A stretch of 64,000 bases of DNA from Candidatus Eiseniibacteriota bacterium (GTDB taxonomy: Bacteria > Eisenbacteria > RBG-16-71-46 > CAZAMP01). The DNA lies in NCBI GenBank assembly GCA_965224245.1, contig OZ245046.1, positions 1,408,001 to 1,472,000 on the forward strand. The letters run 5' to 3'. Made by a program: the position numbers and the translations under genes. Positions 26,204-46,251 of the stretch are shown here, one piece after another (position 1 is the first letter of the stretch; each line of letters starts with the position of its first letter). The notes below the pieces were generated by a model. It saw only the letters and a program-made list of their open reading frames with translations. It made no database searches and was not told the origin of the DNA.

Positions 26204-29200
26204 GTGACGAGCGGACCGACCACACCGACCGGCGACCTCGTGTCGATCGACGGCGAGACGTACTACCGGATCTCGTCGAGCCAGAACCTGGCGCCGTTCT
26301 TCATGACCATCCCGAGCAACACCGACCTGTGGATGTTCATCACGTCGCGGGGCGGTCTCACCGCGGGCCGTGTCGATGCGGATCGAAGTCTGTTTCCCTA
26401 CCAGACCGTCGACCTGCTGCACGACGCGCACCGTCATACCGGGCCGATCACGCTCATCCGCGTGTCCATTCCCGGCGAGCGCGACACGGTGTGGGAGCCG
26501 TTCGCCGACGTGGCGCCACGGAGTGCGCCGGTTCATCGGTGTCTCTACAAGAACGTCGTCGGCAACCGGGTCCTCTTCGAGGAGACGCGCCCGGACCTCG
26601 GCCTGACGTTCAGATACCGATGGTCGGCGTGTGACGCGTTCGGGTTCGTCCGGACGGCGAGCCTCCGTGCCCACGGTCCGGATGCCGCCAGCGGCACGCT
26701 CGTCGACGGCGTTCGCAACGTGCTCCCGTACGGGGTTCCGCTTGCGCTCCAGCAGCGAGCCAGCTGTCTCGTCGACGCGTACAAGCGAACCGACCGCATT
26801 GAGGATCTGCCGCTGGCGGTGTTCTCGCTCACGGCGGAGATTCTCGACCGCGCGGAGGCGGCCGAGCAGCTCCGGGCGAACGTCGCCTGGTGCCACGGGC
26901 TGGGCACGCCGGCGGTGAGCCTGTCCGCCCGATCGCTCGAGTCGTTTCGAGCCGGCGCGGCGGCGGCACGCGAGCGGGTGCTGACCGGGCAGCGAGGGGG
27001 CTTCTTCGTCGAGACGCCGTTCGCGCTGGCCTCCGGCGAGCACCTCGAATGGGACCTCGTGCTGGACGTCGGTCTCGGCCACGTCCGGCTGGTGGAGCTC
27101 ATCGGCTTGATCCGGGAATCGACGGATCTCGACCGACGAGTTCGCAGCGCGCTCGATCACGCGCGGGACGACCTCGTGCGCATCGTGGCCAGTGCGGACG
27201 CCCTTCAGTGCACCGGTCACCCCGTGACGGACGCGCACCACGTGGCCAACGTCCTCTACAACACGATGCGTGGCGGTGTGTTCGCATCCGATCACGACGT
27301 GCCGGTCGACGACTTCGGTGACTTCCTGTCCACGCGCAACCGGCGCGTGAGGGCGCGCTCGGCGGAGTTCCTGCGGACACTCCCGCGGACGCTGTCGATC
27401 GAGGAGCTGCGCCGCGTCGCGACCCGGGCACACGATCCGGATCTGGAACGGCTCGCGTTCGAGTACCTGCCGATCGGGTTCGGCCGCCGCCACGGGGACC
27501 CGAGTCGACCCTGGAACCGCTTCGCGATTCAGGTCAAGAACTCCGACGGGAGCCCCGTCCTGTACTACGAGGGAAACTGGCGCGACATCTTCCAGAACTG
27601 GGAGGCGCTCGCGCTCAGCTTCCCCGACTTCCTGCCGAACCTGATCGCCACGTTCGTGAACGCATCGACGCTCGACGGCTTCAACCCCTACCGCCTCACG
27701 CGCGACGGCATCGAGTGGGAGATCCCCGACCCGGATGATCCCTGGAGCTACATCGGATACTGGGGCGACCACCAGATCGTCTATCTCCTCCGGCTCCTGG
27801 AGGCGCTCGGGCGGACCTCGCCGGCGACGCTCCGGCGGCTGCTCGATCGCCGGATCTTCGCCTACGCGGACGTGCCGTACCGTCTCCGGCCCTACGCGGA
27901 CATCCTGCGCGATCCCCACGCAACGATCGACTACGACCACGACCGTGCGGCTCGCGTCGACACGCGGGTGGCCGCCGTCGGCTCCGACGGGAAGCTCGTG
28001 ACGGGGACCGACGGATCGGTGTCGCTCGTGACGTTGCTGGAGAAGCTCCTCGTCCCCGCGCTCTCGAAGCTCTCCAATCTCGTGCCGGACGGTGGCATCT
28101 GGATGAACACGCAGCGACCGGAGTGGAACGACGCGAACAACGCGCTGGTCGGCAACGGGCTGTCGATGGTCACGCTGTTTCATCTCCGGCGATACCTGGT
28201 TTTCCTCGATGACCTGCTGGCGGACGACACGCGACCCGACCCGACGCCGTGGAGGATCTCCGCGGAGGTGGCGGAATGGATGGCGGACGTGGGTGCCGCG
28301 ATCTCGGAGTGCCGCCGGGCGCTCGACCGCGACGACGTCCACGACGCCCCGGAAACCGCCGACGTCCGCGACGCCGATCGGCTCCGGACGCTCGACGCGC
28401 TCGGGGAGGCATTCTCGCGGTATCGAGAGCGTGTCTACGTCGACGGGCTCTCGGCTCCCGTGGATGTCACGGATGCCACGATCAGGACCGTCGTCCGGGA
28501 CGCGATCGCCGTCATCGATCACGCGATCGCCGCCAGTAGAAGACCCGACGGACTCCATCACACGTACAACCTGCTGTCGATCTCGACCGATGACGAGACC
28601 GCGAGCGTCCGTCATCTGTACGAGATGCTGGAAGGGCAGGTCGCGGCGCTGAGCTCCGGGGCGCTCGGCGTCCGCGAGTGCGTGGAGCTCGCCAAACGAA
28701 TGGTCACGAGTCGCCTCTACCGGCCCGATCAGAGGAGCTTTCTTCTGTACCCCGAGCGTGAGCTTCCCGGCTTCCTGGACCGCAACGCGGTCTCGGCGGC
28801 TCGCGTGGAGGCGATCGGGCTTCTCAGCGCGCTCGAGGCCGCGGGCGACGTCTCGCTGATCGAGCGGGACGGACTCGGCACCCATCGGTTCCACCCCGAC
28901 CTGTCGAACGCTCGTGACGTGTCGTCCGTGCTCGATCGACTCGCCCGTTCCGATCTCTGGCGTGACGGTGTGACGCGGGATCGTGCCCGCGTGTTGGCGC
29001 TCTTCGAGGACGTCTTCGCGCACCGCGAGTTCACCGGGCGCTCGGGAACCATGTACGGCTACGAGGGTCTGGGCTGCATCTACTGGCACATGGTCGCGAA
29101 GCTCCTGCTCGCCATCCAGGAGGTCGTGCATCGCGCCATCGCGGACGGGGAGCCGGACGACGTCGTGAACGACGCGATCGCGACGTATCACCGCGTCCGC

Positions 29201-29692
29201 GGGGGGCTGGGCTTCGAGAAGACCGTCGTCGAGTACGGCGCGTTTCCGACCGACCCGTACTCACACACGCCGGCCCATGCCGGAGCGCAGCAGCCGGGGA
29301 TGACCGGACAGGTGAAGGAGGAGATCCTGACCCGGTTCGGCGAGCTGGGGGTCGCGGTCGAGGGGGGGTGCGTCCGGTTCGCACCGCGCCTGCTTCGCGC
29401 CACCGAGTTCCGGCCCGAGGCCGGCACGTTCGCGTACGTGACGCGGAACGGGGCGCGGCGCGAGATCGACATGGCGGCCGAGTCGCTGGCCTTCACGTAC
29501 TGCCAGGTGCCGGTCGTCTACACGTGCTCGGCGGGCGCGGCCGCCATCCGGACCTCGAGCCCCGGGGCGGCATCGGTCGTCACGCCGGGCGACTTGCTCG
29601 ACGAGGCCACGAGCGCGTCGCTCCTCGGGCGGCGCGGGGAGATCGAGCAGATCGACGTGACCGTGCCTCGCCGCTCACTCGCCCGTTCGTGA
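26204..29692 (+). CDS. GH149 beta-1,3-glucan phosphorylase
   Basis: About 1160 aa, no signal peptide; PFFM...WMF...GGLTAGR...LFPY, RRHGDPSRPWN, YEGNWRDIFQNWE, QRPEWNDANNAL, GAFPTDPYSHTP match GH149 as recalled. Confidence 0.85.
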   Translation: MTSGPTTPTGDLVSIDGETYYRISSSQNLAPFFMTIPSNTDLWMFITSRGGLTAGRVDADRSLFPYQTVDLLHDAHRHTGPITLIRVSIPGERDTVWEPFADVAPRSAPVHRCLYKNVVGNRVLFEETRPDLGLTFRYRWSACDAFGFVRTASLRAHGPDAASGTLVDGVRNVLPYGVPLALQQRASCLVDAYKRTDRIEDLPLAVFSLTAEILDRAEAAEQLRANVAWCHGLGTPAVSLSARSLESFRAGAAAARERVLTGQRGGFFVETPFALASGEHLEWDLVLDVGLGHVRLVELIGLIRESTDLDRRVRSALDHARDDLVRIVASADALQCTGHPVTDAHHVANVLYNTMRGGVFASDHDVPVDDFGDFLSTRNRRVRARSAEFLRTLPRTLSIEELRRVATRAHDPDLERLAFEYLPIGFGRRHGDPSRPWNRFAIQVKNSDGSPVLYYEGNWRDIFQNWEALALSFPDFLPNLIATFVNASTLDGFNPYRLTRDGIEWEIPDPDDPWSYIGYWGDHQIVYLLRLLEALGRTSPATLRRLLDRRIFAYADVPYRLRPYADILRDPHATIDYDHDRAARVDTRVAAVGSDGKLVTGTDGSVSLVTLLEKLLVPALSKLSNLVPDGGIWMNTQRPEWNDANNALVGNGLSMVTLFHLRRYLVFLDDLLADDTRPDPTPWRISAEVAEWMADVGAAISECRRALDRDDVHDAPETADVRDADRLRTLDALGEAFSRYRERVYVDGLSAPVDVTDATIRTVVRDAIAVIDHAIAASRRPDGLHHTYNLLSISTDDETASVRHLYEMLEGQVAALSSGALGVRECVELAKRMVTSRLYRPDQRSFLLYPERELPGFLDRNAVSAARVEAIGLLSALEAAGDVSLIERDGLGTHRFHPDLSNARDVSSVLDRLARSDLWRDGVTRDRARVLALFEDVFAHREFTGRSGTMYGYEGLGCIYWHMVAKLLLAIQEVVHRAIADGEPDDVVNDAIATYHRVRGGLGFEKTVVEYGAFPTDPYSHTPAHAGAQQPGMTGQVKEEILTRFGELGVAVEGGCVRFAPRLLRATEFRPEAGTFAYVTRNGARREIDMAAESLAFTYCQVPVVYTCSAGAAAIRTSSPGAASVVTPGDLLDEATSASLLGRRGEIEQIDVTVPRRSLARS

Positions 29693-29764: not shown

Positions 29765-31555
29765 TCAGGGGCGGCGGACGAGCCGCATGGTGCGGCGATC
29801 ACCGCCGGCGTCGAGCCGGAGGAAATAGACACCCGGCCCGACCGGGTGGCCGGCCCCGTTCCGTCCATCCCACTCGACCGCGTGCGCACCTCGCGCGTGG
29901 GCCCCGATCGCGAGCGTGCGCACGAGCCGCCCGCGTGCGTCGTACACGACGAGTGACGCATCGCCGCCGGACGGGAGCTCGTAGCGGATTGCCGTCCGGG
30001 GCGAGAAGGGATTGGGGGCAGCGGGTCCCAGGACGTGCAGCGCCGTGACCGCGGGCGGTGAGTCGGACGCGAGGAGATCCTGGTTCTCGAACGACCAGCG
30101 ATCGGTTCGAAACGTCTGGACCCCGCCGGTCGGGCTCACGACCACGATCACGACTCCGATCAGCCGTCCGTTGCCGCCGGCGCTCACGGGAGTCGGGTCG
30201 AAGACGCCGTTCCCACCCCAGTGGTAGGAGTTGTCGTCGTAGAACTCGTCGATCGGGATCGAGACGCGCTGCCAGCCGCCTCCCGACACGGCACCGGGGC
30301 CGGTCGGACTCACCACGAAGTCGAACTGGAACTCGTCGTCTCCGCCGTCACCGACCGGGGGAATGCGGTCGTCACCATCGTCGTCGTCCTGAAGGTTCAG
30401 CTCCAGCGTGTAGCTCTGGTCCGCGTCGGGATTGATCCAGAACGAGAAGTGCGTCACGTCGGTCAGATCCACGGGAAGGGTGCGCCCGAAGACGCCGACG
30501 AAGCCCGCCGGGCCGCCCCATCCCGACTCCAGGGAAAAGCGACAGCCGTCGCCGGGCGGGAGATCCACGGCGCTGGCGCCGATGCCGCCACCGCCGCCGC
30601 CACCCTCACTCCACCAGCCGTTTCCGTAGGGGTCGCCGTGGTCCATGCCGTCGAACAGCACGCCGCGATCGGGGTGCTCGGGCTTCTGGTACACGCGCAC
30701 GTAGTCGATGACGTACTCCTGCGGGAACTCCGTCGTGTCGTCCGGTGGCCCGGGCAGATTTCCCCCGACGGCCATGTTCAGGAGCAGATGGAAGTCGTGG
30801 TCGAACGGAGCGGGGTAGGGGCCCCCCGAGGACGTCCAGAAGCTGTTGCACGCGTACTGGACGCCATCGACGTACCAGCGCATCTCGTGGGGCTCCCACT
30901 CCAGGGCGAACACGTGAAAGCCGTCGTCGAACGTGCCCTCGGGCAAGGTGTGGTCGGTGGTGGCGTAGCGGTGACCCGGGTCCCCGTAGTGCAGCGTGCC
31001 GAACGTGCGATCGGGGTCCTGTCCGAGATACTCCATGATGTCGATCTCGCCCGAGACCGGCCATCCGCCGTAGGGGCTGTCCGTGGGGAGCATCCAGAAC
31101 GCGGGCCAGATGCCCTGTCCGACCGGCAGCTTCGCTCGCATCTCGAAGCGTCCGGTCGTCCAGTCGCCGAGGCCCCGGGTGCGCAGCCGTGACGACGTGT
31201 AGTCGCGTCCGCCGAACGATTCTTCCTTCGCGGTGATCGTCAGGACGCCGTCGGCGACGGTCGAGTTCTCCGCGCGGTAGTACTGGAGCTCGTCGTTGCC
31301 CCATCCACAGAGGTCGGGGCACCCGGTTCCGATCTGGAACTCCCACTTCGTGGGATCGACCTCGGTGCCGTCCAACTCGTCGCTCCAGACGAGCGTGTAC
31401 TCGGCCGCCGAGTTGGACGCGCACAGGCCGAGCAGCGTGGCCGCGATCGCCATCGACCGAGCACGGGACCGGACGGCCACGCGCGACGCGGTGTGGACGG
31501 GCGTGGGACCGTCGCCGGCGGCCGAGGCCGCCGGCGGGGACGTCGGGACGATCAC
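29765..31555 (-). CDS. Secreted GH16 endo-beta-1,3-glucanase + CBM-like domain + FlgD-Ig
   Basis: WSDE, WGNDELQYY, GIWPAFWML, GEIDIME, DYVRVYQ; alternative start ATG 31453. Confidence 0.92.
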   Translation of the reverse strand: MIVPTSPPAASAAGDGPTPVHTASRVAVRSRARSMAIAATLLGLCASNSAAEYTLVWSDELDGTEVDPTKWEFQIGTGCPDLCGWGNDELQYYRAENSTVADGVLTITAKEESFGGRDYTSSRLRTRGLGDWTTGRFEMRAKLPVGQGIWPAFWMLPTDSPYGGWPVSGEIDIMEYLGQDPDRTFGTLHYGDPGHRYATTDHTLPEGTFDDGFHVFALEWEPHEMRWYVDGVQYACNSFWTSSGGPYPAPFDHDFHLLLNMAVGGNLPGPPDDTTEFPQEYVIDYVRVYQKPEHPDRGVLFDGMDHGDPYGNGWWSEGGGGGGGIGASAVDLPPGDGCRFSLESGWGGPAGFVGVFGRTLPVDLTDVTHFSFWINPDADQSYTLELNLQDDDDGDDRIPPVGDGGDDEFQFDFVVSPTGPGAVSGGGWQRVSIPIDEFYDDNSYHWGGNGVFDPTPVSAGGNGRLIGVVIVVVSPTGGVQTFRTDRWSFENQDLLASDSPPAVTALHVLGPAAPNPFSPRTAIRYELPSGGDASLVVYDARGRLVRTLAIGAHARGAHAVEWDGRNGAGHPVGPGVYFLRLDAGGDRRTMRLVRRP

Positions 31556-32952
31556 GGGGTCAGCACCATCCGGCGGGACTCGCGCCCGGAGGACGTCGTG
31601 AGCACGTACCGGTAAACGCCGGCCGCCGCCGGCAGGCCCCGGCTCGTGATGCCGTCCCAGCTCACCGCGTGGCGCCCCGCGACGCGGGTGCCCGAGACGA
31701 GCGTGGCCACGCGCCGCCCGAACACGTCGTACACGCCGAGATCGACGACGTCCGCGCGCTCGAGCACGAACGTGATGCGCGTGGTCGGGTTGAACGGGTT
31801 CGGCGTGTTCTGATGGAGTGTGATCGCACCGGGACCGGTACTCGCGTCCACGCCGAGCGGCGTCGACAGACCGAAGAACACGTCGTCGAACCAGATCGCG
31901 CCGCTCTCCTCGAGCGGCGAGATGAAGAGCAGATACGCCTGCACCTGGACGGTGCCCACCGGCGCCGCCGCGCTCACGCTGCTCTCGGTCCAGGTTCCGG
32001 GCGGTGAGGACGCGTCGGCCAGCGTGACCTCCTCGCCTCCGATCTCGATCTCGACGGCGTCGAGAAAGACGATGCGGGCGATGGCGTAGTTGGCGCCGCC
32101 GTTGATGGGGTCGGCGCACGAGGCGAGCCCGTGCGCGCGCATCTCGAACTCCATGCCGGCCGAGGCGCCGAACGTCTGGAACATCCCCGACGGGCTCTCG
32201 GGCGTGAAGGTCGAGAACATCTTCGCCGAGCCGGGGGCCGTCCGCACGAAGCTGCCGTTGCCCTCCGCAAAGGCGTTGCCGAACGTGCTCCAGCCCGACA
32301 GTCCCGAGTCGAAGCTCGCGTTGGCCAGGAGGTTTCCGGTCGGGGGCTCGGGCGCCGACAACTCGACCAGCGACACGTCGTCCACGAACACCGCTCCGGC
32401 GTCGCATGCCGGCTGGAGGAACAGGAACAGGGCCTCGACACGGAGCGCGCCGCTCGGGGTCGGCGCCGAGACCGAGAACGCGTTCCACTGGTCGGGGACC
32501 GTCTGCCAGTCTCCGATGACGATCTCGTTGGACGAGATCTCCGCGCCACCGGACACCGCGTCGAAGAACGCGATCTTGGCGATCAGCCGGTTCGACGCGC
32601 ACGTGTCCGAGCCGGGAATCGGGTCTCCACTCTGGACGTAGGCGTATCCGCCGAACTCGTAGACCATGTCCGGCGCGGGCGTGAACGCCTGAAAGAAGCC
32701 ACCGACGTCGAACTGCGGGAAGTCGGGGCAGTTCGTGAACTCACCGAAGATCTTGGCCGACTGAGCGCCGGTCCGGGCCTCGTCGCCGCTGATGTTCGGC
32801 CCCGATCCGAACACGGTCCACCCGGTGAAGAGCGGCCGGTCCTCGAACCCTGGATTGTCCAGGAGATTGACGCCGGCGACGGCCTGTGACCCGATCGCGG
32901 ACGCGACGAGGAGCGTCAGCGCCACACGGGCGGGCGTAACGGAACGCTTCAT
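31552..32952 (-). CDS. Secreted protein with two CBM-like domains + FlgD-Ig
   Basis: Signal peptide; NLLDNPGFE and NLLANASFD domains ending VFVDDV/IWFDDV; QNTPNPFNP tail. Confidence 0.8.
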   Translation of the reverse strand: MKRSVTPARVALTLLVASAIGSQAVAGVNLLDNPGFEDRPLFTGWTVFGSGPNISGDEARTGAQSAKIFGEFTNCPDFPQFDVGGFFQAFTPAPDMVYEFGGYAYVQSGDPIPGSDTCASNRLIAKIAFFDAVSGGAEISSNEIVIGDWQTVPDQWNAFSVSAPTPSGALRVEALFLFLQPACDAGAVFVDDVSLVELSAPEPPTGNLLANASFDSGLSGWSTFGNAFAEGNGSFVRTAPGSAKMFSTFTPESPSGMFQTFGASAGMEFEMRAHGLASCADPINGGANYAIARIVFLDAVEIEIGGEEVTLADASSPPGTWTESSVSAAAPVGTVQVQAYLLFISPLEESGAIWFDDVFFGLSTPLGVDASTGPGAITLHQNTPNPFNPTTRITFVLERADVVDLGVYDVFGRRVATLVSGTRVAGRHAVSWDGITSRGLPAAAGVYRYVLTTSSGRESRRMVLTP

Positions 32953-33947: not shown

Positions 33948-34961
33948 GTGCAAGCCGGTTCCCGCCCCGCCGAGCCCGTGGTCGACGTCCGAGGCCTCCG
34001 AAAGGCGTTCTCGTCTGCGGGATCGCTGACCCGATCGCGGCGCGTCGTGGCCGCCGAGGACGTGTCGTTCCGGATCCACCGGGGGGAGGCGGTCGCCCTG
34101 GTCGGGGAGTCCGGGAGCGGTAAGAGCACCATTGCCAAGCTCTTACTGCGTCTGGAGCGACCCGACGGCGGGGAGATCCGGATCGACGGGGCCGACGTGC
34201 TGAGCCGCGAACGACGGCGAGCGTCTGTCGGGTACCGGAGACGGGTCCAGATGGTGTTCCAGGACCCGTTCGGCTCGCTGAACCCGGTCCACGACGTCGC
34301 CCACCACCTGATCCGGCCCCTCCTCCGCCACCGCCGCGCCGCGCCGCCGGATGCACGCCGGCGGGCGGCCGATCTCTTGCGCACGGTCGGGCTGGAGCCC
34401 GCCGAGGACTATCTGGGCCGCCATCCGTACGAGCTCTCGGGCGGCCAGCGGCAGCGGGTCGCGATCGCACGCGCGCTCGCGGTGGAGCCGGACGTGCTCG
34501 TGGCCGACGAGCCCACGTCGATGCTGGACGTCTCGATCCGCATGGACATCTTGAACCTGCTCGCACGCCTCAAGCGAGATCGGGGACTCGCGATCCTGCT
34601 CATCACGCACGATCTGGCCTCGGCGCGCTTTCTCGCCGAGCGCGTCCTGGTGCTGTTTCAGGGACGGGTCGTCGAGAGCGGGTCGAGCGCCGACGTGGTC
34701 TCCACACCTCTTCACCCGTACACGCGGGCGCTCGTCGACGCGATCGCCGACGACCGGCCCCGGGACGCGCGGAGCCCACACGCCACCTTCGCCCTCGAGG
34801 CGCCCACGGGGTCCGGCTGCCCGTTCGCATCCCGATGCCCCGAGGTCTTCGACCCCTGCCTCACGAGCGATCCCGGCCCGACCGAGGTCGACGGACGTGA
34901 GGTGCGCTGTCACCTCCACCGGGACGCGCACCGTCCCGGCTCGACGGGAGTCCAGACGTGA
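33948..34961 (+). CDS. ABC transporter ATP-binding subunit (OppF/DppF-like)
   Basis: GESGSGKST, LSGGQRQR, VADEPT, HPYT, GCPFASRC. Confidence 0.95.
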   Translation: MQAGSRPAEPVVDVRGLRKAFSSAGSLTRSRRVVAAEDVSFRIHRGEAVALVGESGSGKSTIAKLLLRLERPDGGEIRIDGADVLSRERRRASVGYRRRVQMVFQDPFGSLNPVHDVAHHLIRPLLRHRRAAPPDARRRAADLLRTVGLEPAEDYLGRHPYELSGGQRQRVAIARALAVEPDVLVADEPTSMLDVSIRMDILNLLARLKRDRGLAILLITHDLASARFLAERVLVLFQGRVVESGSSADVVSTPLHPYTRALVDAIADDRPRDARSPHATFALEAPTGSGCPFASRCPEVFDPCLTSDPGPTEVDGREVRCHLHRDAHRPGSTGVQT

Positions 34962-36349
34962 CGACCCGGCGGTTTCCCGAGGGCTTCGTCTGGGGCACGG
35001 CCACGTCGTCCCATCAGATCGAGGGCGCAATCCACGCGGCGGGACGCGGGGAGTCGATCTGGGATCGCTTCGCGTCGGTGCCGGGCAACATCGCGGACGG
35101 AAGCGACGCCAGCGTTGCCTGCGACCACTACCATCGCTGGCGCGAGGACGTCCGCCTCCTCGCCGAGCTCGGCGTCGACGCCTATCGGTTCTCGATCGCG
35201 TGGCCCCGCATCCTGCCGACCGGGTGGGGGCCGCTCAACGTGCGCGGGCTGGACTTCTACGACGCGCTGGTGGATGCGCTCGTCGAGGCGAACATCCGAC
35301 CGTTCGTGACCCTGTACCACTGGGATCTCCCGCAGTCCCTGGAGGATCGCGGCGGGTGGACCTCGCGCGACACGGCGGAGGCGTTCGTCGAGTATGCCGC
35401 GGTCGTGACGGCACGACTCGGGGATCGCGTGCGAGACTGGGCCACGCACAACGAGCCCTGGTGCATCGCCGCGCTCGGGTACGGGAGCGGTCAGCACGCG
35501 CCCGGGCATCGAGACCCGTTCGAGGCCCTGATCGCCGCGCACCACGTGCTTCTGTCGCATGGATGGGCGGTGCCCGAGATCCGCCTGGCGTCGCCGGAGG
35601 CGGCGGTCGGCATCGTGCTCAGCCTGTCGCCCGCGAGCGCCCGCACCGATTCCGACGCCGATCGGGATGCGGCCCGACATTTCGACGGAGCATTCAACCG
35701 CTGGTACCTGGATCCGGTCTTCCGCGGACGGTATCCACGGGACGTGATCGCCGATCACGTCCGCGCCGGTCATCTCGATGCGCCGGCGCTCCCGTTCGTG
35801 CGCGACGGCGATCTCGGGGCGATCGCGACCCCGATCGACTTCCTCGGCGTCAACTACTACACGCGGACCGTTCTCGAGGCCGGCCGGAACGGAGCGCCCG
35901 CCGCGGTACGCATGGCTCCCCAGGACGAGCTGACGGACATGGGCTGGGAGGTGCATCCGGATGGGCTCCGTGAGATCCTCGTCCGCATCACCCACGACTA
36001 CGGGCCGGCCGAGATCCACGTGACCGAGAACGGCGCCGCCTACGCCGACGGTCCGGACGATTCCGGTCGGATCGCCGACGCGCGCCGGATCTCGTTCATG
36101 CAGTCTCACCTGGCCGCGGCGCATCGCGCGATCGGCGAGGGCGTTCCGCTCCGGGGCTACTTCGCGTGGTCGCTGCTCGACAACTTCGAGTGGGGGCACG
36201 GCTACGCCAAGCGCTTCGGTCTCCACTGGGTCGACTACGCGACGCAGCGGCGACTTCCCAAGGATAGCGCGTTGTGGTATCGCGACGTCATCGCCGCCAA
36301 CGCGGTGGACGACGCCGTGACGGAGACCATTCGAGGAGGCTCGACGTGA
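34958..36349 (+). CDS. GH1 beta-glucosidase
   Basis: WGTATSSHQIEG, THNEP, VTENG, WSLLDNFEW. Confidence 0.97.
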   Translation: MTTRRFPEGFVWGTATSSHQIEGAIHAAGRGESIWDRFASVPGNIADGSDASVACDHYHRWREDVRLLAELGVDAYRFSIAWPRILPTGWGPLNVRGLDFYDALVDALVEANIRPFVTLYHWDLPQSLEDRGGWTSRDTAEAFVEYAAVVTARLGDRVRDWATHNEPWCIAALGYGSGQHAPGHRDPFEALIAAHHVLLSHGWAVPEIRLASPEAAVGIVLSLSPASARTDSDADRDAARHFDGAFNRWYLDPVFRGRYPRDVIADHVRAGHLDAPALPFVRDGDLGAIATPIDFLGVNYYTRTVLEAGRNGAPAAVRMAPQDELTDMGWEVHPDGLREILVRITHDYGPAEIHVTENGAAYADGPDDSGRIADARRISFMQSHLAAAHRAIGEGVPLRGYFAWSLLDNFEWGHGYAKRFGLHWVDYATQRRLPKDSALWYRDVIAANAVDDAVTETIRGGST

Positions 36350-39300
36350 GCGCGTTCGGACAGGACCTCTCGTGGCCGGTGCTGGCGCGTCGCGCCGGCG
36401 TCGCGCTCGTGATCGTCGCGGCCACGACGGCGGGAACGTTCGCCGCGGAGCGTGCGCCGATGCCCGAGATTTCCATCTCGTCCGGTGACGCGGGCGAGAT
36501 GCTGATCGTGGACGGGCGGCCGTTCATGGTCTTCGGAATGAACTGGGACTACGTCCCCATCGGGCAGAACTACGCCTACAGCCTGTGGAACGAGCCCGAC
36601 GACGTGATCGAGGCCGCGCTCGCGAGAGAGATGCCGCTCCTGGTCGACATGGGCGTCAACGCGATCCGGCAGTACGCGGGGGTCCCGCCCCGATGGGTGC
36701 AGTACATCTACGAGCGCTACGGCATCTTCACGGTGCTCAACCACACCGTGGCCCGCTACGGCTTCACGCTGGACGGGGTGTGGGTGCCGGCCGTCGACTA
36801 CTCGGATCCGCGTCTTCGTGACGCGGTGACCACGGAGGTCGTGGATCTCGTCGAGGCGTTCCGCGACACGCCGGGCGTCTTGATGTGGCTCCTCGGGAAC
36901 GAGAACAACTACGGCCTCTCCTGGACCTCGTTCGAGATCGAGGCCTTGCCCGAGGGTGAGCGCGATGCCGCCCGCGCTCGCCATCTCTACAGCTTGTTCG
37001 AGGAGATCACGCGCGCCATCAAGGCGCGGGACACGGCGCGACCGGTCGCGATCGCGAACGGTGACGTCCAGTACATCGAACTCATCGCCGAGGAGTGCCC
37101 GTCGCTGGACGTCTTCGGCACCAACGTGTATCGGGGGATCTCCAGCCGGGATCTGTTTCAGGTCGTGCACGACCGGCTCGGGCTGCCGGTGCTGTACACC
37201 GAGTTCGGAGCGGACGCGTTCGACGCCAAGCGGATGCGCGAGGATCAGATCATGCAGGCTCGCTATCTGATCGGTCAGTGGAAGGAGATCTACGAGCAGT
37301 CGCGCGGGAAGGGGCGCGTCGGCAACGCGATCGGAGGGCTCGTCTTCCAGTGGAGCGACGGATGGTGGAAGTTCCGGCAGGAGGAGCGGCTGGACGTCCA
37401 CGACACGAACGCGTCCTGGCCCAACGGGGGCTACGTGGAGGACTACGTCGAGGGCGACAACAACATGAACGAGGAGTGGTGGGGGATCACCGCCAAGGGA
37501 AGGCCGGACGCGAGCGGTCTGTACCCGGTCTACCCGCGTGCGGCCTACTACGCCCTTCAGCGGTGCTTCCGTCTCGAGCCCTACGCCCCGTCGACCACGC
37601 TCCAGCGGATCTCCGACCACTTTGACGCCATCACGCCGGCATCGGCCGAGCTGGAGGCCCGGGGGAGTCGCGCGACGCTCCTGGCCACGACCACGAGCCG
37701 GCTTCGCGTCAGCGAGCTCCGGCTCGAGCTCGAGACGTTCAGCACCGGGGGGACGCGCGTCAGCACGCCGGAGAGCGAGGAGGAACCGGCCACGTTTCCC
37801 GCGTTTCAGGGCTTCGATCAGCTCCAGTCGTTCTACGCCGGACTCGAGGCGCAGCCCGCCCCCAACGTTCTGGGCCGGCTCACGATCAACGTGCTGGGCG
37901 ACGTTCCCACCAACCCGATCGACGAGATCTTCTACGAGAACCGCGGGCGCAGGCGCACGCTGGAGTCGGACGACACGACGTTCGACCTGGAGGGAATCGA
38001 GCGGGTGAAGGTCTACGACGCAGCGGTGTCGTGGGACGAGCGGATGTTCCAGCTGGAGGGCTTCTACCGGTCGGGACATTACCACTGGGGATACGAAGGT
38101 GACCTCTTCGGCCTGTACCGCGAGGCGTACTACGGCGAGAACATCGACATCTACAACGGCGAGGCGCCGGTCGGCGTGGTGATCGCCGGCAAGCGCTCGA
38201 TGTCGGGGCTGACGCTCGCGTTCGGTCAGGAGCTCTGGTGGGGGGCGAACCCCGCGATCCTGGTGAAGGCGCGGCGTCAGCTCGGCGACGTGGACGTGAC
38301 CGCGATGTTCCACGAGGACCTGGCGGAGCAGTCCGGGGCCAGGACCTCCAGCGCGGTGCCGCTGCCCGAGACGCGCAAGGCGACCCTCCAGCTCGCCACG
38401 TCGTACCGCGGGCTCGGGATCGAGGTCGGTGGGATCTGGTCGGGTGACACGAAGGTCGGTGACACGTTTCAGATCGCCGACGAGCTTCCGGACGGGGGTT
38501 ACCGGATCCTGCAGGACGAGATCTACGACGAGGACACGATCGGGGGAAAGGCGAGACTCACCTACCAGCGCGGCCGCTGGAACTGGTATGCGCAGGCCGC
38601 CTACATGGGACTCGTGGCCGACGGCGGTCCGACCCAGACCGTGACGTATACGGGGTGGTCGCTGAAGGACACGGGGTCGGGCAACCAGAAGAACGTCGTC
38701 ACCGGGCTCGCCGTCAACCTGGGTCGGTTTCAGGTGTCTCCCAACTTCCTCTACCAGACGCCGATCGTGGGGCCGATCCCCGGCGACGTTCCGTCCCCGG
38801 GACTGCCGCGCAACGTGCTCGACGATCCGTTCGCGGTGCGCGCGAACCGGGAGACGGTCGGCTCGGAGCTCATGATCACCTACGATCCCACGCCGGCGAC
38901 CTGGATGTGGCAGTGGGACGCCGTCGCGCGCGAAGACGCGCGTCTGGCGGCCAGCCTGGGCTTCGTTCATCGCCACCTGCCGACCACGCAGGATGCGGCC
39001 ATCGGCGTTCTGGAGGATGGGTCGACGACGTTCGCGTTCTCGGGGGCGCCGCCGGCCCGGGACCTCTGGGAGATCCGAGCGCGCATCATCTCGCGGCTGG
39101 GGGCGGGCACGCGCCTCGTGGCGAACCTCTTCGGCGGGCGCGGCGAGCCCAACGGCGACGACGATCGTGTCGTGGAACGGGTCGGCGGTGATGCGCGTCT
39201 CGCGGTGGGATCGGTGGCCGTGGAGGTGGCGGCGGCGTTCGACGACTGGGGGCCGTACGACTACCACCGTGACTTCAACCTGACGTTTCCGGTCCAGCTC

Positions 39301-39522
39301 CGCGGAGATGTCTCGTACAGCCTGGGACGCCAGCGCTGGCTCGGAGATCCCCAGACCCGGTTCGGGGTGCGGGGCACGTGGCGGTCCCTCGATCGATACT
39401 CGCCGCGGTACTGCCCGGTCGAGATCCTGAATGCCGACGGCACCGTGGACTGCGATCCGCTCGGACCGGGCGAGCACGGCAACGAGTGGGAGATCCGGAC
39501 CTACGTCCACTTCGCGATGTAG
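36346..39522 (+). CDS. Clan GH-A (GH2/GH158-like) TIM-barrel hydrolase fused to a large beta-rich C-terminal domain
   Basis: GAGGAGG RBS, GTGA overlap; signal peptide; LLGNENNY and YTEFGAD catalytic Glu motifs; amphipathic strands ending WEIRTYVHFAM. Confidence 0.75.
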   Translation: MSAFGQDLSWPVLARRAGVALVIVAATTAGTFAAERAPMPEISISSGDAGEMLIVDGRPFMVFGMNWDYVPIGQNYAYSLWNEPDDVIEAALAREMPLLVDMGVNAIRQYAGVPPRWVQYIYERYGIFTVLNHTVARYGFTLDGVWVPAVDYSDPRLRDAVTTEVVDLVEAFRDTPGVLMWLLGNENNYGLSWTSFEIEALPEGERDAARARHLYSLFEEITRAIKARDTARPVAIANGDVQYIELIAEECPSLDVFGTNVYRGISSRDLFQVVHDRLGLPVLYTEFGADAFDAKRMREDQIMQARYLIGQWKEIYEQSRGKGRVGNAIGGLVFQWSDGWWKFRQEERLDVHDTNASWPNGGYVEDYVEGDNNMNEEWWGITAKGRPDASGLYPVYPRAAYYALQRCFRLEPYAPSTTLQRISDHFDAITPASAELEARGSRATLLATTTSRLRVSELRLELETFSTGGTRVSTPESEEEPATFPAFQGFDQLQSFYAGLEAQPAPNVLGRLTINVLGDVPTNPIDEIFYENRGRRRTLESDDTTFDLEGIERVKVYDAAVSWDERMFQLEGFYRSGHYHWGYEGDLFGLYREAYYGENIDIYNGEAPVGVVIAGKRSMSGLTLAFGQELWWGANPAILVKARRQLGDVDVTAMFHEDLAEQSGARTSSAVPLPETRKATLQLATSYRGLGIEVGGIWSGDTKVGDTFQIADELPDGGYRILQDEIYDEDTIGGKARLTYQRGRWNWYAQAAYMGLVADGGPTQTVTYTGWSLKDTGSGNQKNVVTGLAVNLGRFQVSPNFLYQTPIVGPIPGDVPSPGLPRNVLDDPFAVRANRETVGSELMITYDPTPATWMWQWDAVAREDARLAASLGFVHRHLPTTQDAAIGVLEDGSTTFAFSGAPPARDLWEIRARIISRLGAGTRLVANLFGGRGEPNGDDDRVVERVGGDARLAVGSVAVEVAAAFDDWGPYDYHRDFNLTFPVQLRGDVSYSLGRQRWLGDPQTRFGVRGTWRSLDRYSPRYCPVEILNADGTVDCDPLGPGEHGNEWEIRTYVHFAM

Positions 39523-39530: not shown

Positions 39531-40485
<955 letters not shown>

Positions 40486-40508
<23 letters not shown>

Positions 40509-41442
40509 GGGCGGTCCCGGTCACCACGGGCGTCGATCGGGTGGGTCGAGTGTCGGTGGCCTCGAGATGCCGGCGCCACGCCCGCTCCAGCTGGAGCCGC
40601 GGGTTCGTGATCTCGTCGAAGCCGGAGTTCAGCATCGTCAGCGCGAAGCCCACCAGTGCCACGCACAGGCCGGTCGGCGCGAACGTCCACCAGGCGCCGG
40701 TCAGGAGCGCCGAGTCGTTCTGTGCCCAGTACAGATTGGTTCCCCACGTGAAGGCCGAGACGTCACCGAGCCCGAGGTACTCCAGCCCGACCTGTGCCCC
40801 GATCGCATACACCGTGCTTCCGATGACCTGGGAGACCAGGAGCGACGTCATCGTGGGCAGGATCTCCCGGGTGACGATGCGCAGGCTGGACTCTCCCGCC
40901 ACGACGGCGGCACGCACGTAGTCGCGCTCTCTCTGGGAGAGCGTCTGCGCGCGGAGGACCCGTGCGTTCCACGCCCACCCCGTCACGACGAGAACGAGCC
41001 CCAGCGTGAGCGGACCCGACGGCAGGTAGGCGGCGATGACGATCGCCAGCGGGAGCCCCGGAATCACCAGGAACACGTTGAAGAGGAGCGAGAGCGCGCC
41101 GTCGATCCGGCCGCCGACGTACCCGGCGGTGACCCCGACCAGCGAGCCGACGAGCACGACGACGAGGCCCACGGAGAACCCCAGGACGAGGGAGACGCGC
41201 GTCCCGACGACGAGCTGGGCGAGGACGTCCTGGCCCTGGCCCGTGGTGCCGAGCCAGTGCTCGGTCGACGGTGGCTGTAGCGGGACGCCGACCAGCGCGT
41301 CGGGATCGCCGACCAGGAACGGTCCGAACACCGCGACGAGCACGAAGACGGCCAGGATCACGGCTCCCGCGGCGGCCTTGCGATCCGTGCGGATCGCTCG
41401 TGCCCAGGACAGGAGACCGGTGGGGTTCCGGGAGGCGCTCAT
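40486..41442 (-). CDS. ABC transporter permease (OppC/DppC-like)
   Basis: HWLGTTGQGQDV, EAA-like loop DYVRAAVVAGE, LEYLGLG. Confidence 0.92.
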
Positions 41443-42422
41443 GAGCCGCCGCCTCTCGTGCGGGGATCGAGCCAGAGATACACGAGATCCACGAGCCAGT
41501 TCGCGCCGAGCACCGCGAACGTGATCAGCAGGAAGATGCCCTGCATCAGTGGGTAGTCCTGACTCCGGACCGCCTGGACCAGGAGGTAGCCCTGTCCCGG
41601 ATACGAGAACACGATCTCGGTCAGGAGCGACCCGCCGAGCACGAACCCGAGCGCCATGCCGAAGCCCGTGACGCTGGGCAGGAGCGCGTTCCGCGCGGCG
41701 TACCGGACGACGACGCGCGTCGGCGACAGGCCCTTGGCCCACGCGAGGCTCACGTAGTCCGAGCCGAGCACCGAGATCATGTTGTTGCGCATCGACAGGA
41801 GCCAGCCACCCAGCGTGGCCAGGACCACGGTGCCGACCGGGAGGGCCGCGTGGCGGGCGACGTCCATCGCGAAGGCGAGCGAGACACGGGGGGTTTCGTC
41901 GCTCCCGTAGGCGTGCCCGAGGGGAAACCAGCCGAGCACGAAGCCCAGCAGGTACAAGGCGACCATGGCCAGCCAGAAATACGGGAACGCGCCGATGAAC
42001 ACCAGGGTGGATGGCAGCCACGTGTCCACCCATCCCCGCCGCCACCATGCGGCGACGATGCCGAGGGCGGTCCCCACGGCGAAGCTGATCACGACCGACG
42101 TGCCGGCCAGGAAGATCGTCCATGCGAGCCCGGTCCCGATGACGTCGGAGACGGGTGATGGGAAGTACGCGACCGAGATTCCGAGATCGCCGGCCAGGAC
42201 GTGGCGAACGTACGTCACGTACTGGCTCCACAGCGGCGCCTCGGTGAGACCGAACGTCTCTCGAAGTGCGTCCAGCGCTTCGGGTCCCAGTCGACCCTTG
42301 AAGCGGGCGAAGAGAGCGGTCGCCGGATCGCCCGGCATCAGCCGCGGCAAGAAGAAGTTGATCGTCAGCGCGACCCAGCCCGCGATCAGGTAGAAGCCCA
42401 GCCGCCCCGCGATGTAACGCAC
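41439..42422 (-). CDS. ABC transporter permease (OppB/DppB-like)
   Basis: PRLMPGDP, GDLGIS, DYVSLAWAKGL, EIVFSYPG, DYPLMQG. Confidence 0.95.
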   Translation of the reverse strand: MRYIAGRLGFYLIAGWVALTINFFLPRLMPGDPATALFARFKGRLGPEALDALRETFGLTEAPLWSQYVTYVRHVLAGDLGISVAYFPSPVSDVIGTGLAWTIFLAGTSVVISFAVGTALGIVAAWWRRGWVDTWLPSTLVFIGAFPYFWLAMVALYLLGFVLGWFPLGHAYGSDETPRVSLAFAMDVARHAALPVGTVVLATLGGWLLSMRNNMISVLGSDYVSLAWAKGLSPTRVVVRYAARNALLPSVTGFGMALGFVLGGSLLTEIVFSYPGQGYLLVQAVRSQDYPLMQGIFLLITFAVLGANWLVDLVYLWLDPRTRGGGS

Positions 42423-44129: not shown

Positions 44130-44953
44130 CGACTTCCTCGGTAGACGCGCACCCAGTCCACCAGCATCGTCTGCGGGAACGCCGTCGTCTCGTCCGGCGG
44201 CCCGACGAAGTGACCGCCGACCGCCACGTTCAGGATGATGAAGAACGGGTGATCGAACACCCAGCGTCCCCGATCCGCGATCGAGCGCGGGGTCAGCGTC
44301 TGGTAGCGCACGCCGTCCACCGTCCACGTGATCCGGTCCGCAGTCCACTCCACTCCGAAGACGTGAAACCCGGCGCCGAAGTCCCCGGCCGGCAGCGTGT
44401 ACCGCGCGGTCACGGCGCTGCCGCCGGAGTAGCCCGGCCCGTGAACGCTCCCCAGCACCAGGTTCGGCTCTTGCCCCCGGTACTCCATGATGTCGATCTC
44501 GCCGCAGTCCGGCCAGCCGGTGGTGGGGAAGTCGGCTCCGAGGAGCCAGAACGCCGGCCAGATGCCCCGTCCCACCGGGAGGCGGATCCGTGCCTCGAAG
44601 CGACCCTCCTCCTGCTCGAACAGGCCGAACGTCGTCAGCCGCGCAGACGTGTAGTCGCGTCCGCCGTAGCGCTCCTCCCTGGCCACGATCGCCAGATGGC
44701 CGGCCCCGTCGAGGGACGCGTTCTCGGGTCGGTCGGTGTCGTACTCCAGCTGCTGGTTGCCCCAGTCGGTGCCGACGTCGAACGTCCATCGCGACGTGTC
44801 GGGGAGCTCGCCGGCGGGTCCATCGAACTCGTCCTGCCACGACAGCTCCCAGGTGAACGCGTCCTCCCCGCAGGACGCGCCGACGAGCACGCTCCACGCG
44901 AGCGCGGCCAGCAGGATGCGTGCGACCGGAGGTGACGAGGTCGGGCCGCTCAC
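44126..44953 (-). CDS. GH16 endo-beta-1,3-glucanase, lipoprotein
   Basis: Lipobox-like VGASC; WQDEF, GIWPAFWLL, GEIDIME, DWVRVY. Confidence 0.92.
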   Translation of the reverse strand: MSGPTSSPPVARILLAALAWSVLVGASCGEDAFTWELSWQDEFDGPAGELPDTSRWTFDVGTDWGNQQLEYDTDRPENASLDGAGHLAIVAREERYGGRDYTSARLTTFGLFEQEEGRFEARIRLPVGRGIWPAFWLLGADFPTTGWPDCGEIDIMEYRGQEPNLVLGSVHGPGYSGGSAVTARYTLPAGDFGAGFHVFGVEWTADRITWTVDGVRYQTLTPRSIADRGRWVFDHPFFIILNVAVGGHFVGPPDETTAFPQTMLVDWVRVYRGSR

Positions 44954-46227
44954 TGGGGCCTCGGACGCGCCGCATCGGCGGGAAACAGACGGGAGTCGCC
45001 GAGGGCGGCCTTCAGCACCAGCGTCGACGCGCCGATCGCGATCGTGCGCGGGCCGAGCTCGCTGGTGCAGATGTCGGTCGCGTCGATGGAGCTCAGGAGC
45101 GTGCGATGCCGAAGCGTCTCGCGCAGCGGGGCGAGCAGTCGTTCTCCGAGCCGCGAGAAGCCGCCGCCGATGATGACCCTGGCGGGGTTCATGAGGTTCA
45201 ACATACCGGCCAGCGCGACGCCGAGGTGTTCGGCCGCCTCGTTGACGACCTGCGTGGCCAGCTCGTCTCCCTGCAGTGCGGCGTTCTCGATCTGGGCCAC
45301 GGTCTGTGTTCCCGCCGCGACGGTGCTGTCGGGGTACTCGCCGGCGAGCGCACGGGCTCGGGCGACCAGGGCGTCGGCGCCCACGAACGTGGCCAGGCAG
45401 CCCCGGAGGCCGCACAGGCACGGGCCCCCGTTGGGATCGATCGCCATGTGACCGATCTCACCCGCGACCCCGGTCGCGCCGCGGTAGATCTCGCCCGCGA
45501 CGACGTGTCCGGAACCGACGCCGGTGGCCACTTTGACGTACGCGAAGTCCCGCAGCCCCTTGCCGGCCCCCCACCATTGCTCGGCCAGCGCGCCGAGGTT
45601 TGCGTCGTTGTCGATCAGGATCGGAACCTCGAAACGGCCGAGCACCTCTCGCACGCCGCTTCGCCCGTGCCACGCCGGCAGTACCGTCTCCGAGAGGTGG
45701 TCCGGATCGGCGGGATCGTGGGGGCTGGGAACGGCGACTCCGATGCCGAGGAGCGGTGGTGCATCAGCGGGTCGTGCCGCAAGACACTCGTTGCACAGCG
45801 CGACCATGACCGCGCGCGTGCCGTCGGGGTCCTCACGGACCTCGTGAGCGCGCTGTCGCCACGCGAGGACGCGTCCCCGCAGGTCGGTGAGGGCGACGGC
45901 CACGTGAGCGGCGCCCATCTCCACGCCGAGGATGCAGCAGGCGTCGTCGCGGAACTCGAGCACGATCGGACGCCGTCCGCCGCGGGAGCGACCCAGCCCG
46001 ACCTCGTACACGAGCCCGGTCGGGATCAGCGTGCTGACGATCTCCGAGATCGTCGATCTGGCCAGCCGGGTCTCGCGAGCCAGATCGGCGCGCGAGATGC
46101 GCCTCGCCTCCCAGATCAGGCCGAGCACGGTGTCGGTCAGCGGACGTGCGCGGGCGGGACTGGTGGCGCCGGAGTCACCGGACGGTGGGGCGTCGACCGG
46201 CGTCGAGCTCTCCTTGTCCACGTGCAT
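44950..46227 (-). CDS. ROK-family transcriptional repressor
   Basis: N-terminal HTH ISRADLARETRLARSTISEIV, GGRRP; NDANLGALAE; GEIGH; CLCGLRGC. Confidence 0.95.
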   Translation of the reverse strand: MHVDKESSTPVDAPPSGDSGATSPARARPLTDTVLGLIWEARRISRADLARETRLARSTISEIVSTLIPTGLVYEVGLGRSRGGRRPIVLEFRDDACCILGVEMGAAHVAVALTDLRGRVLAWRQRAHEVREDPDGTRAVMVALCNECLAARPADAPPLLGIGVAVPSPHDPADPDHLSETVLPAWHGRSGVREVLGRFEVPILIDNDANLGALAEQWWGAGKGLRDFAYVKVATGVGSGHVVAGEIYRGATGVAGEIGHMAIDPNGGPCLCGLRGCLATFVGADALVARARALAGEYPDSTVAAGTQTVAQIENAALQGDELATQVVNEAAEHLGVALAGMLNLMNPARVIIGGGFSRLGERLLAPLRETLRHRTLLSSIDATDICTSELGPRTIAIGASTLVLKAALGDSRLFPADAARPRPQ

Positions 46228-46251
46228 CTCCCGGGGTGGGTCGCCGGCCCT

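Follow-up and report, generated by a model that had tools for sequence, protein, structure and literature searches.

A GH158-like hydrolase fused to a predicted outer-membrane beta-barrel in a putative beta-1,3-glucan locus of an Eisenbacteria genome

Beta-1,3-glucans of the laminarin type rank among the most abundant glycans of the sea and of soils. To our knowledge, the way in which the outer membrane is crossed in loci that are based on an ATP-binding cassette (ABC) importer is mostly unknown outside the Bacteroidota. For chitin, the route of Vibrio comprises the chitoporin ChiP, a chitodextrinase in the periplasm, and an ABC transporter and a phosphorylase for chitobiose; LamB and ScrY are other sugar porins. 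Here, we describe a gene from a stretch of 64,000 nucleotides of a Candidatus Eiseniibacteriota genome (contig OZ245046.1, positions 1,408,001 to 1,472,000; the window), located at window positions 36346-39522 on the plus strand. Its product combines a glycoside hydrolase (GH) domain with a C-terminal domain predicted to form an outer-membrane beta-barrel. We slightly favour the view that it is a two-module outer-membrane protein, consisting of a TonB-independent channel for beta-1,3-gluco-oligosaccharides and a tethered periplasmic endo-beta-1,3-glucanase. It probably represents the missing outer-membrane gate of a widespread laminarin cluster that imports sugars by an ABC transporter.

Related arrangements have been described in part. 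The authors of the GH149 family present their Type I clusters as being without an outer-membrane transporter, as far as the available portion of their article goes (PMC5827456). FbGH17b of Formosa is a transporter of the major facilitator superfamily (MFS) fused to a GH17 domain, for which a coupling of cleavage and uptake was proposed; in the accessible sections of this 2018 study, such a fusion is called undescribed in other bacteria (PMC6246565). An outer-membrane beta-barrel that acts as a beta-1,6-glucanase, GluM of Corallococcus, is reported in the available excerpt of a review (PMC10800785). For the gene described here, the architecture, the catalytic residues, the fold class of the barrel, the conserved synteny and the existence of independent modules are established below.

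Architecture of the fused protein

The target gene is a single uninterrupted open reading frame (ORF) of 1058 codons, the translation of which contains no internal stops. Its GTG start codon at 36346 overlaps the stop of a GH1 gene at 36349, hence both genes are placed in one operon. The position of the start agrees with the homologues, which begin at nearly the same place, span 93-100% of the query and carry N-terminal leaders of similar length in the alignment. Approximately residues 1-34 (36346..36447, +) were identified by eye as a Sec type I signal peptide, with two arginines at positions 15-16, a hydrophobic core at 17-28 and a TFA/AE-like cleavage site near residue 34. The signal peptide is followed by a GH158-like (beta/alpha)8 glycoside hydrolase domain of clan GH-A (about residues 40-430, 36463..37635, +), a linker helix (residues 431-449, 37636..37701, +; DSSP of the models) and the beta-barrel domain (residues 453-1058, 37702..39519, +), the first strand of which begins at residue 453, nucleotide 37702, according to DSSP of the full-length model. 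The linker helix marks the edge of the modules: stand-alone GH homologues stop just past it and stand-alone barrels begin just past it. The full-length AlphaFold model, calculated with a 40-sequence alignment, has a predicted local distance difference test score (pLDDT) of 74 and a predicted template modelling score (pTM) of 0.51. No NCBIfam model matched the target above the cut-offs, and its own 6.9 Mb genome holds one copy of the gene. An earlier note, made from the letters of this DNA alone, had proposed the signal peptide, a GH-A barrel with both catalytic glutamates, a domain boundary near 37690 and a C-terminal beta-barrel of about 600 residues; all of these are borne out by the analysis, in which the barrel comprises about 605 residues.

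For the hydrolase domain, Pfam gave a weak match to the GH2 TIM-barrel family PF02836 (residues 91-293, E 2.8e-6, 27.2 bits vs. a cut-off of 21), and DSSP of the full-length model shows the alternating strand/helix pattern of a (beta/alpha)8 fold at about residues 62-333. In a Foldseek search, the GH158 structures 9p26, 6pal (BuGH158) and 9oro ranked at the top (E ~1e-12 to 1e-11, target TM-score 0.54-0.55), followed by GH35 (7kmn) and then GH157 (9fz9, a laminari-oligosaccharide-binding enzyme); the top matches all belong to GH-A. The family profile matched 6pal with an E-value of 2.9e-4 (21.8 bits) and 9oro with an E-value of 0.017. In the alignment to 6pal, the family motif LLGNENNY falls on GIGNE of BuGH158 and FTEFGAD on ITEWG. 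Counted along the 6pal chain, the aligned residues are N114/E115 and E198, which become N136/E137 and E220 with the 22-residue offset of the construct. N136, E137 and E220 are the catalytic Asn and Glu residues of BuGH158, and their mutants are given as inactive in the accessible part of that study (PMC7157763). In the target family, N185, the acid/base E186 (36901-36903, +) and the nucleophile E286 (37201-37203, +) are the same in all 40 aligned homologues, and in a profile alignment the NE and nucleophile motifs also match those of the beta-galactosidase 1yq2. As N185, E186 and E286 are invariant and aligned with the proven residues of BuGH158, the GH domain is, judged by its residues, a catalytically complete retaining hydrolase of clan GH-A. 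Its closest characterised relatives are endo-beta-1,3-glucanases.

With an identity to GH158 of ~15% in the Foldseek alignment and no Ig-like domain, the GH domain does not appear to be a clean GH158 member, and the GH158-like branch to which it belongs may be distinct. The Ig-like domain that completes the cleft of BuGH158 was not seen in the model, in which DSSP assigns only coil and helices to residues 334-452, and the stand-alone GH homologues of 415-450 residues stop after the linker helix without such a domain. Located in this region is a Trp-rich insertion (about residues 339-397, 37360..37536, +) that is highly conserved but modelled with low confidence. The pLDDT is below 50 for residues 339-377, yet W340, W341, K342, D353, W358, N373-G380 and others are invariant. 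The insertion, with the motifs DGWWK and NMNEEWWG, is nearly invariant as a whole and may serve as a platform for the substrate or touch the barrel.

The C-terminal domain was modelled alone (residues 441-1058) with a diverse alignment of 53 sequences of 24-65% identity, resulting in a pLDDT of 91.2 and a pTM of 0.87. DSSP of this model shows 26 long antiparallel strands and three short loop hairpins. In the average over the 53 homologues, a clearly hydrophobic face opposite a polar one is seen in about 22 of the 26 strands. Both faces are polar in a hairpin at C-domain residues 267-285, which in the model probably lies outside the membrane, and strands 1 and 4 are almost without alternation. 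Hence, the number of strands is given as ~24-26.

Structural comparison places the domain among membrane barrels. Of 49 Foldseek rows from the PDB, 48 are named outer-membrane proteins, the remaining row, 9j9n, being unclassifiable from its title. The list is headed by PfeA, FepA and BtuB, and the neighbours include TonB-dependent receptors, the porins OmpF, OccK, ChiP, MOMP and maltoporin, AlgE and the FimD usher. VIA-align, which is independent of Foldseek and was run against 48,161 representative chains, returned membrane beta-barrels in 50 of 50 rows. The highest Z-scores were obtained for AlgE (14.3), OmpM1 (13.5) and MOMP (13.2), all of them for partial alignments, while ChiP, maltoporin and the OccD/K porins scored 10-13, BT1762 10.7 and the exopolysaccharide porins PgaA, PelB and BcsC 9-10. 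The widest coverage was seen for FimD and PapC (356-373 residues over 12..618, with Z 12.6 and 356 aligned residues for FimD) and for MtrB (Z 11.1, 405 residues), which presumably have 24 (FimD, PapC) and 26 strands (MtrB). The closure of the modelled barrel is suggested by these structural neighbours.

The structure and barrel check that the earlier note had named beforehand also bears on an alternative, in which the C-terminal region would consist of soluble beta-sandwiches or carbohydrate-binding modules (CBMs) and the protein would be a soluble multi-domain glycosidase. The names of the homologues, either enzyme-like or 'hypothetical protein', would be in keeping with this. Soluble beta-sandwich neighbours, an outcome that the note had named as refuting its proposal, were, however, found in none of the 50 VIA-align and 49 Foldseek rows, and the alternative is therefore disfavoured. 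No CBM or Ig family matched in Pfam at E<=5, long antiparallel strands are modelled with confidence, and the hydrophobicity of the strands alternates as in membrane barrels. We give a soluble glycosidase next to no weight.

The model points to an outer-membrane-type beta-barrel of an undescribed family, with a predicted location in the outer membrane. For the C-terminal 618 residues, Pfam gave nothing at E<=5, including the porin, autotransporter, Omp85, CBM and Ig families, and a PDB sequence search with a 16-sequence profile of the barrel gave nothing at E<=10. At these thresholds (Pfam E<=5; PDB E<=10) the domain belongs by sequence to none of LamB/ScrY, OprD/ChiP and alginate_exp, with which the structural overlap is partial (Z 10-14, 240-300 residues). 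The TonB-receptor families Plug (PF07715) and barrel (PF00593) are absent in Pfam searches from the whole protein at E<=1 and from the C-domain at E<=5. The barrel of type Va autotransporters (PF03797) gave no Pfam match either, and ~24-26 strands are modelled vs. 12 in that family. DUF6029 (PF19494) is no more than a lead: it was returned by Protein Atlas solely as a language-model look-alike cluster (rank 7, score 0.93), and hmmscan gave no match at E<=5. The other Protein Atlas returns for the barrel are unnamed clusters.

The protein ends in WEIRTYVHFAM, which had been read in the earlier note as beta-signal-like. This holds in so far as the segment forms the last strand and contains alternating hydrophobic residues; in the clade, the terminal residue is as a rule not the canonical aromatic one. 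In the query and the 120 close homologues (n=121), the last residue is L in 64, M in 29, I in 20, W in 3, S in 2, and F, V and R in one each. Among 55 representatives of at least 560 residues, some of which are cut at the C-terminal end, the last residue is F in 16, L in 11, I in 8, Y in 6, W in 2 and another residue in 12, that is, F, Y or W in 24 of 55. The own genome encodes BamA/Omp85 (PF01103, best E 1.1e-47). In the last long loop, two cysteines (RYCP...DCDP, residues 1021-1037, 39406-39456, +) belong to the consensus of the close clade; this pair suggests a disulfide, which would fit an extracytoplasmic loop.

The most conserved parts of the barrel are long loops with aromatic and acidic residues, located at C-domain residues 135-168, 190-196 (WWGANP), 315-340, 366-396, 407-427 and 529-539. 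In the model, these loops suit a sugar-binding constriction. Alternatively, the barrel itself may bind or cleave glucan, comparable to GluM of Corallococcus, and would then not be a passive channel. The conservation of 60-69% identity across phyla is high for an outer-membrane protein, no exchange is seen at E863 and D883 (full-length numbering), many of the loop residues are aromatic or acidic, and the family is present in Myxococcota, all of which could point to such an activity. However, the conserved loops equally suit a constriction, ordinary GH16 enzymes accompany the barrels that occur without the GH domain, and the likeness to GluM is one of description. A binding or cleaving barrel appears extremely improbable to us.

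Independent modules and the surrounding gene cluster

Of 8000 candidates that were scored in a word-indexed search with the target, at least 5115 proteins reached E<=1e-3. The best 120 homologues have 986-1104 residues, 61-69% identity and 93-100% query coverage; in NCBI and JGI they are called 'glycosidase', 'GH2 TIM barrel-domain containing protein', 'beta-galactosidase' or 'hypothetical protein' only, and their named sources are Eisenbacteria, Krumholzibacteria and Gemmatimonadota. When contigs of one genome per species were scanned with two invariant peptides, at least 594 matching stretches were obtained, 80 loci of which were kept. A relative is encoded in 585 of these stretches, and the fused form is present in at least 585 species genomes. 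The 80 kept loci come from Gemmatimonadota (including Longimicrobiales and Palauibacter), Eisenbacteria, Krumholzibacteria, metagenome-assembled genomes (MAGs) labelled as Fibrobacteraceae, Ignavibacteria, Rhodothermales, Delongbacteria, Latescibacterota, one Bacteroidia MAG and, from the Myxococcota, Anaeromyxobacter, Archangium and Myxococcaceae.

Both modules also occur on their own. The C-domain was compared with 1.84 billion representatives at 50% identity, which resulted in 471 matches at E<=1e-3, 321 at <=1e-10 and 141 at <=1e-30. Most full-length matches are fused forms of ~1000-1100 residues. Also among the matches are stand-alone barrels of 564-597 residues that begin with a clear signal peptide and end in Y-x-F; two clusters of them, with 21 and 27 members on contigs of up to 1.7 Mb, have Pseudomonadales or Oceanospirillaceae as named sources. 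In marine gammaproteobacterial loci, the stand-alone barrels adjoin the same Opp-type ABC importer and GH16. A metagenome scan with the stand-alone barrels gave 340 stretches with 230 relatives, from which 80 loci were kept. A GH domain lies directly upstream of the barrel in 54 of these 80 loci, 44 of them with complete fused ORFs of 777-1198 residues. No GH match was found in the other 26, of which 18 contain complete, stop-bounded stand-alone ORFs of 575-624 residues. Adjoining these 18 stand-alone barrels, a gene of the SBP5 family or of an ABC importer is present in 10 loci, GH16 in 11 and at least one of both in 16, with neither beside the barrel in the remaining two (L098 and L107). One metagenome locus (L112, 942-11246; Pfam) represents a complete version of the system with a stand-alone barrel, in the order SBP5, two permeases, two ATPases, a LacI regulator, a 575-residue barrel and a GH16 protein that includes an Exop_C-like domain; the opposite strand holds another GH16.

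Stand-alone GH proteins have 415-450 residues and 53-66% identity to the query, are located on contigs of up to 6.9 Mb, and carry Sec-type or lipobox-like signals. Among Bacteroidota-like genomes, where a pairing of the stand-alone GH with SusC/SusD was looked for, a group of 12 reached from locus L082 gave eight GH matches, seven of which lie in frames of 916-1219 residues, fused or cut, and one in a frame of 602 residues. As the GH domain and the barrel each occur alone, the target gene is a fusion of two autonomous secreted modules. Judged by the genes alongside it, the neighbourhood of the barrel is the same with or without the enzyme, and a stand-alone secreted barrel next to an SBP5 importer or GH16 is as expected for the outer-membrane gate of the pathway.

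By its predicted gene content, the locus of the target is a catabolic cluster for beta-1,3-glucan (laminarin-type) that belongs to the ABC-importer type. On the plus strand, the target is preceded by an Opp/Dpp-type ABC ATPase (33948..34961; PF00005, PF08352) and the GH1 beta-glucosidase (34958..36349; PF00232, E 5.7e-160). Convergent with the target, the minus strand carries another Opp/Dpp-type ABC ATPase (39531..40508; PF00005, PF08352), two ABC permeases (40486..42422; OppC-like at 40486-~41440 and OppB-like at 41439-42422; PF00528, PF12911, PF19300), an SBP_bac_5 solute-binding protein with the lipobox-like sequence LLATAC (42432..~44100; PF00496, E 1.9e-64), a small GH16 with the lipobox-like sequence VGASC (44126..~44940; PF00722, E 3.2e-21) and a ROK-family regulator with an N-terminal helix-turn-helix (HTH) region (44950..46227; PF00480, E 5.5e-50, and HTH matches). 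A GH149 beta-1,3-oligosaccharide phosphorylase, in which no signal peptide was seen, is encoded at 26021..29692 (+) and matched PDB entry 6hq6 in phmmer with E = 0 and 1077 bits over residues 35-1217. It is followed on the minus strand by a secreted GH16 with a C-terminal FlgD_ig-type domain (29765..~31500; PF00722, PF13860) and a secreted protein of 466 residues (31552..32952) with a signal peptide and two CBM-like repeats, both assigned by eye, and a FlgD_ig-type C-terminus (PF13860, residues 396-456). The N-termini of the solute-binding protein and of both GH16 proteins were set by reading. Each of the repeats, which are called CBM-like by eye, opens with NLLxNxxF, and the 466-residue protein is a candidate surface glucan-binding protein.

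In a comparison of the neighbours over the 80 related genome loci, a good number of them truncated, GH16 was matched in 54, GH1 in 28, GH149 in 22, each ABC ATPase in 16, the FlgD_ig protein in 15, SBP5 in 13 and the permease in 11. GH1 lies directly upstream of the target in every related locus inspected for position. As had been noted earlier, the locus offers no other outer-membrane channel: among the ORFs scanned, 23.9-46.2 kb, neither a TonB-dependent or SusC-like transporter nor any other such channel was found, and the 12 Plug (TonB-receptor) matches of the own genome all lie outside the window.

The gene context also bears on the direction of transport. In the secretion of exopolysaccharides, porins are paired with enzymes, as in AlgE/AlgL, BcsC/BcsZ and PgaA/PgaB, and the target might accordingly be an export porin with a trimming hydrolase for a beta-glucan exopolysaccharide. 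Such a role would be in line with AlgE as the top VIA-align match (Z 14.3) and with PgaA, PelB and BcsC at Z 9-10. These structural matches are, however, partial and extend over 200-267 residues of the barrel, the neighbouring genes are catabolic (an SBP-dependent importer, GH149, GH1, GH16, and a ROK or LacI repressor), and no glycosyltransferase or synthase was found among the locus ORFs scanned. We consider export very unlikely.

Several further features of the window were recorded. A FlgD_ig-type end (PF13860) is found on three proteins of the locus, encoded at 23930-25987 (+; Pfam), 29765-31500 (-) and 31552-32952 (-), and may be a secretion or sorting tail. An ORF of 366 residues at 32792-33892 (+), upstream of the ATPase-GH1-target operon, has no Pfam match and one weak match in the 80 related loci (L027). 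The long ORFs 42432-44975 (-) and 29765-32602 (-) were rejected as spurious out-of-frame N-terminal extensions over the small GH16 gene and the gene with the CBM-like repeats, respectively, the true starts being at ~44100 and ~31500. The ORF 44920-47028 (+), with 702 residues and matches in 38 of 80 loci, has an Arg/Asp/Gly-rich translation and lies opposite the ROK gene on the minus strand; it is therefore regarded as an antisense artefact and not as a conserved partner. Downstream of the locus are a GGDEF diguanylate cyclase and two TPR proteins, at 48173-49171 (+) and 53382-57316 (+). An Omp85-like match (52491-53270, E 9.7e-9) is located near the C-terminus of a protein of 1110 residues (50043-53375, +) that also has PD40 beta-propeller and collagenase-like matches. 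This may perhaps be a second protein composed of a soluble domain and a barrel, unrelated to the glucan locus.

Proposed function and topology

In the favoured model of a channel with a tethered glucanase, the protein would be exported by Sec, and the beta-barrel assembly machinery (BAM) would insert the C-terminal barrel of 24-26 strands into the outer membrane. Secreted GH16 enzymes would release beta-1,3-gluco-oligosaccharides outside the cell, which the barrel would let pass without TonB. The GH158-like retaining endo-beta-1,3-glucanase, held at the periplasmic rim of the barrel by the short helix, would trim the incoming chains, and the SBP5/Opp-type ABC importer would carry short oligosaccharides to the cytoplasm, where the GH149 phosphorylase and the GH1 beta-glucosidase would complete the breakdown. 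The outer-membrane location, the channel function, the substrate and the periplasmic side of the enzyme are what we infer from the models and the gene context.

The orientation of the barrel can be assessed from its turns. All two-residue turns (8 of 8) are located on the side that holds both termini of the barrel, and the long conserved loops are on the opposite side. In BAM-assembled barrels, the side with the tight turns and the termini faces the periplasm. Since the parity of the tight turns and the even number of strands put the N-terminus of the barrel in the periplasm, the GH domain is, according to the model, most likely periplasmic.

In the main alternative, the enzyme would be displayed at the surface, through or beside the barrel. 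The barrel would then anchor and maybe secrete the GH domain in the manner of an autotransporter, the polymer would be cut outside, and the conduction of products would be optional. The order of signal peptide, enzyme and C-terminal barrel is that of type Va/Vd autotransporters, and the 19-residue helix 431-449 in front of strand 1 could, in the model, in principle span the lumen. In the available text, the authors of BuGH158 regard it as a glycosidase of the cell surface (PMC7157763), and several stand-alone GH homologues carry lipobox-like, that is, lipoprotein-like signals, so that a surface location of the GH domain is conceivable. Against surface display, the barrel is modelled with ~24-26 strands vs. 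12 or 16 in autotransporters and has no match to the autotransporter or Omp85 families of Pfam, 18 complete stand-alone ORFs encode it without a passenger, and its conservation peaks in the long loops and not in an element that would handle a passenger. The outside step is, moreover, already covered by the secreted GH16 and the CBM-like protein with their FlgD_ig-type tails. Altogether, surface display appears rather unlikely.

Besides the surface role of BuGH158 and the lipoprotein-like signals, several points weigh against the model of a periplasmic glucanase on an import channel. Channel, membrane location and enzyme activity stand as predictions. The full-length model is moderate (pLDDT 74, pTM 0.51) and does not predict how the GH domain is placed relative to the barrel. 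In the barrel model, the lumen may be open, but it may also be filled by the long conserved loops or have the linker helix running through it. The C-terminal residue in the clade of the target is L, M or I and not aromatic. Finally, the GH domain resembles GH158 only weakly (15% identity, profile E 2.9e-4), and the predicted beta-1,3 specificity comes mainly from the gene context of GH16, the GH149 beta-1,3-oligosaccharide phosphorylase and GH1.

If the channel model is true, the family would supply the outer-membrane step in at least 585 species genomes across many phyla, with the stand-alone form in marine Gammaproteobacteria. It defines an unannotated family of predicted outer-membrane barrels, and an import channel with a covalently attached hydrolase would offer a directly testable model for the coupling of cleavage and uptake without TonB. 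More tentatively, as an idea to which we would not yet give even chances, the fusion could represent a third route of glycan entry across the outer membrane, beside SusCD/TonB systems and small passive porins, that acts as a cut-and-import ratchet. Long beta-1,3-glucan chains, possibly branched or helical, would enter through the wide barrel of 24-26 strands, and the endo-glucanase at its periplasmic exit would cut the emerging chain, so that hydrolysis makes entry irreversible without energy from TonB. The stand-alone barrels of marine Gammaproteobacteria would then be the enzyme-free version and the missing outer-membrane part of the 'Type I' GH149 clusters.

Comparison with known systems

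SusC-like and other TonB-dependent transporters have the same role in the pathway, that is, they bring oligosaccharides across the outer membrane, and their large barrels are structural neighbours of the target barrel. The target differs from the SusC-like proteins in that it has no match to the Plug or TonB-box families, no SusD partner, and an enzyme instead of a plug at its N-terminus. In BcsC, PgaA, PelB and LptD, an N-terminal soluble periplasmic domain precedes a C-terminal barrel. The target shares this domain order, whereas these proteins export a polymer or lipid and have TPR or jellyroll N-domains, and the context of the target is catabolic.

The closest functional analogy may be the ChiP route of Vibrio, which would follow the same logic and lead through a TonB-independent channel to a periplasmic endo-enzyme, then through an SBP5-type ABC importer to a phosphorylase in the cytoplasm. 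ChiP, LamB and ScrY have 16-18 strands, and porin and enzyme are separate proteins; the target, in contrast, has ~24-26 modelled strands, a covalently attached hydrolase and no Pfam porin match.

On the side of the enzyme, BuGH158 (PDB 6pal) from the 1,3-glucan locus of Bacteroides uniformis shares the GH-A TIM barrel, the aligned NE acid/base motif and the TE(W/F)G nucleophile motif with the target. According to the accessible portion of the BuGH158 study, its locus resembles that of the target by encoding GH16 and a beta-glucosidase; the protein differs by a C-terminal Ig-like domain that shapes the cleft, for which there is no counterpart at target residues 334-452, and it is a lipoprotein that works with SusC/SusD, whereas in the target, enzyme and barrel form one polypeptide and import is assigned to an ABC system (PMC7157763). 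GluM, as described in the review excerpt, resembles the target as an outer-membrane barrel tied to beta-glucan breakdown, from a phylum that also carries the target family; the two were compared by description only (PMC10800785). The closest precedent for a fusion of a transporter and a carbohydrate-active enzyme in laminarin use is FbGH17b, in which a transporter of a laminarin pathway and a beta-1,3-glucanase are likewise united in one polypeptide, as far as the available text of the study describes it. FbGH17b differs as an alpha-helical MFS protein of the inner membrane with a C-terminal GH17 domain, whereas the target is predicted to be an outer-membrane barrel with an N-terminal GH158-like domain (PMC6246565). 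A literature search, incomplete in coverage, found no description of a GH domain fused to an outer-membrane import barrel, nor of this barrel family. By analogy with these systems, what appears to be new here is that a channel and a periplasmic glycanase, known as separate parts, would be combined in one polypeptide with a predicted, unannotated barrel family.

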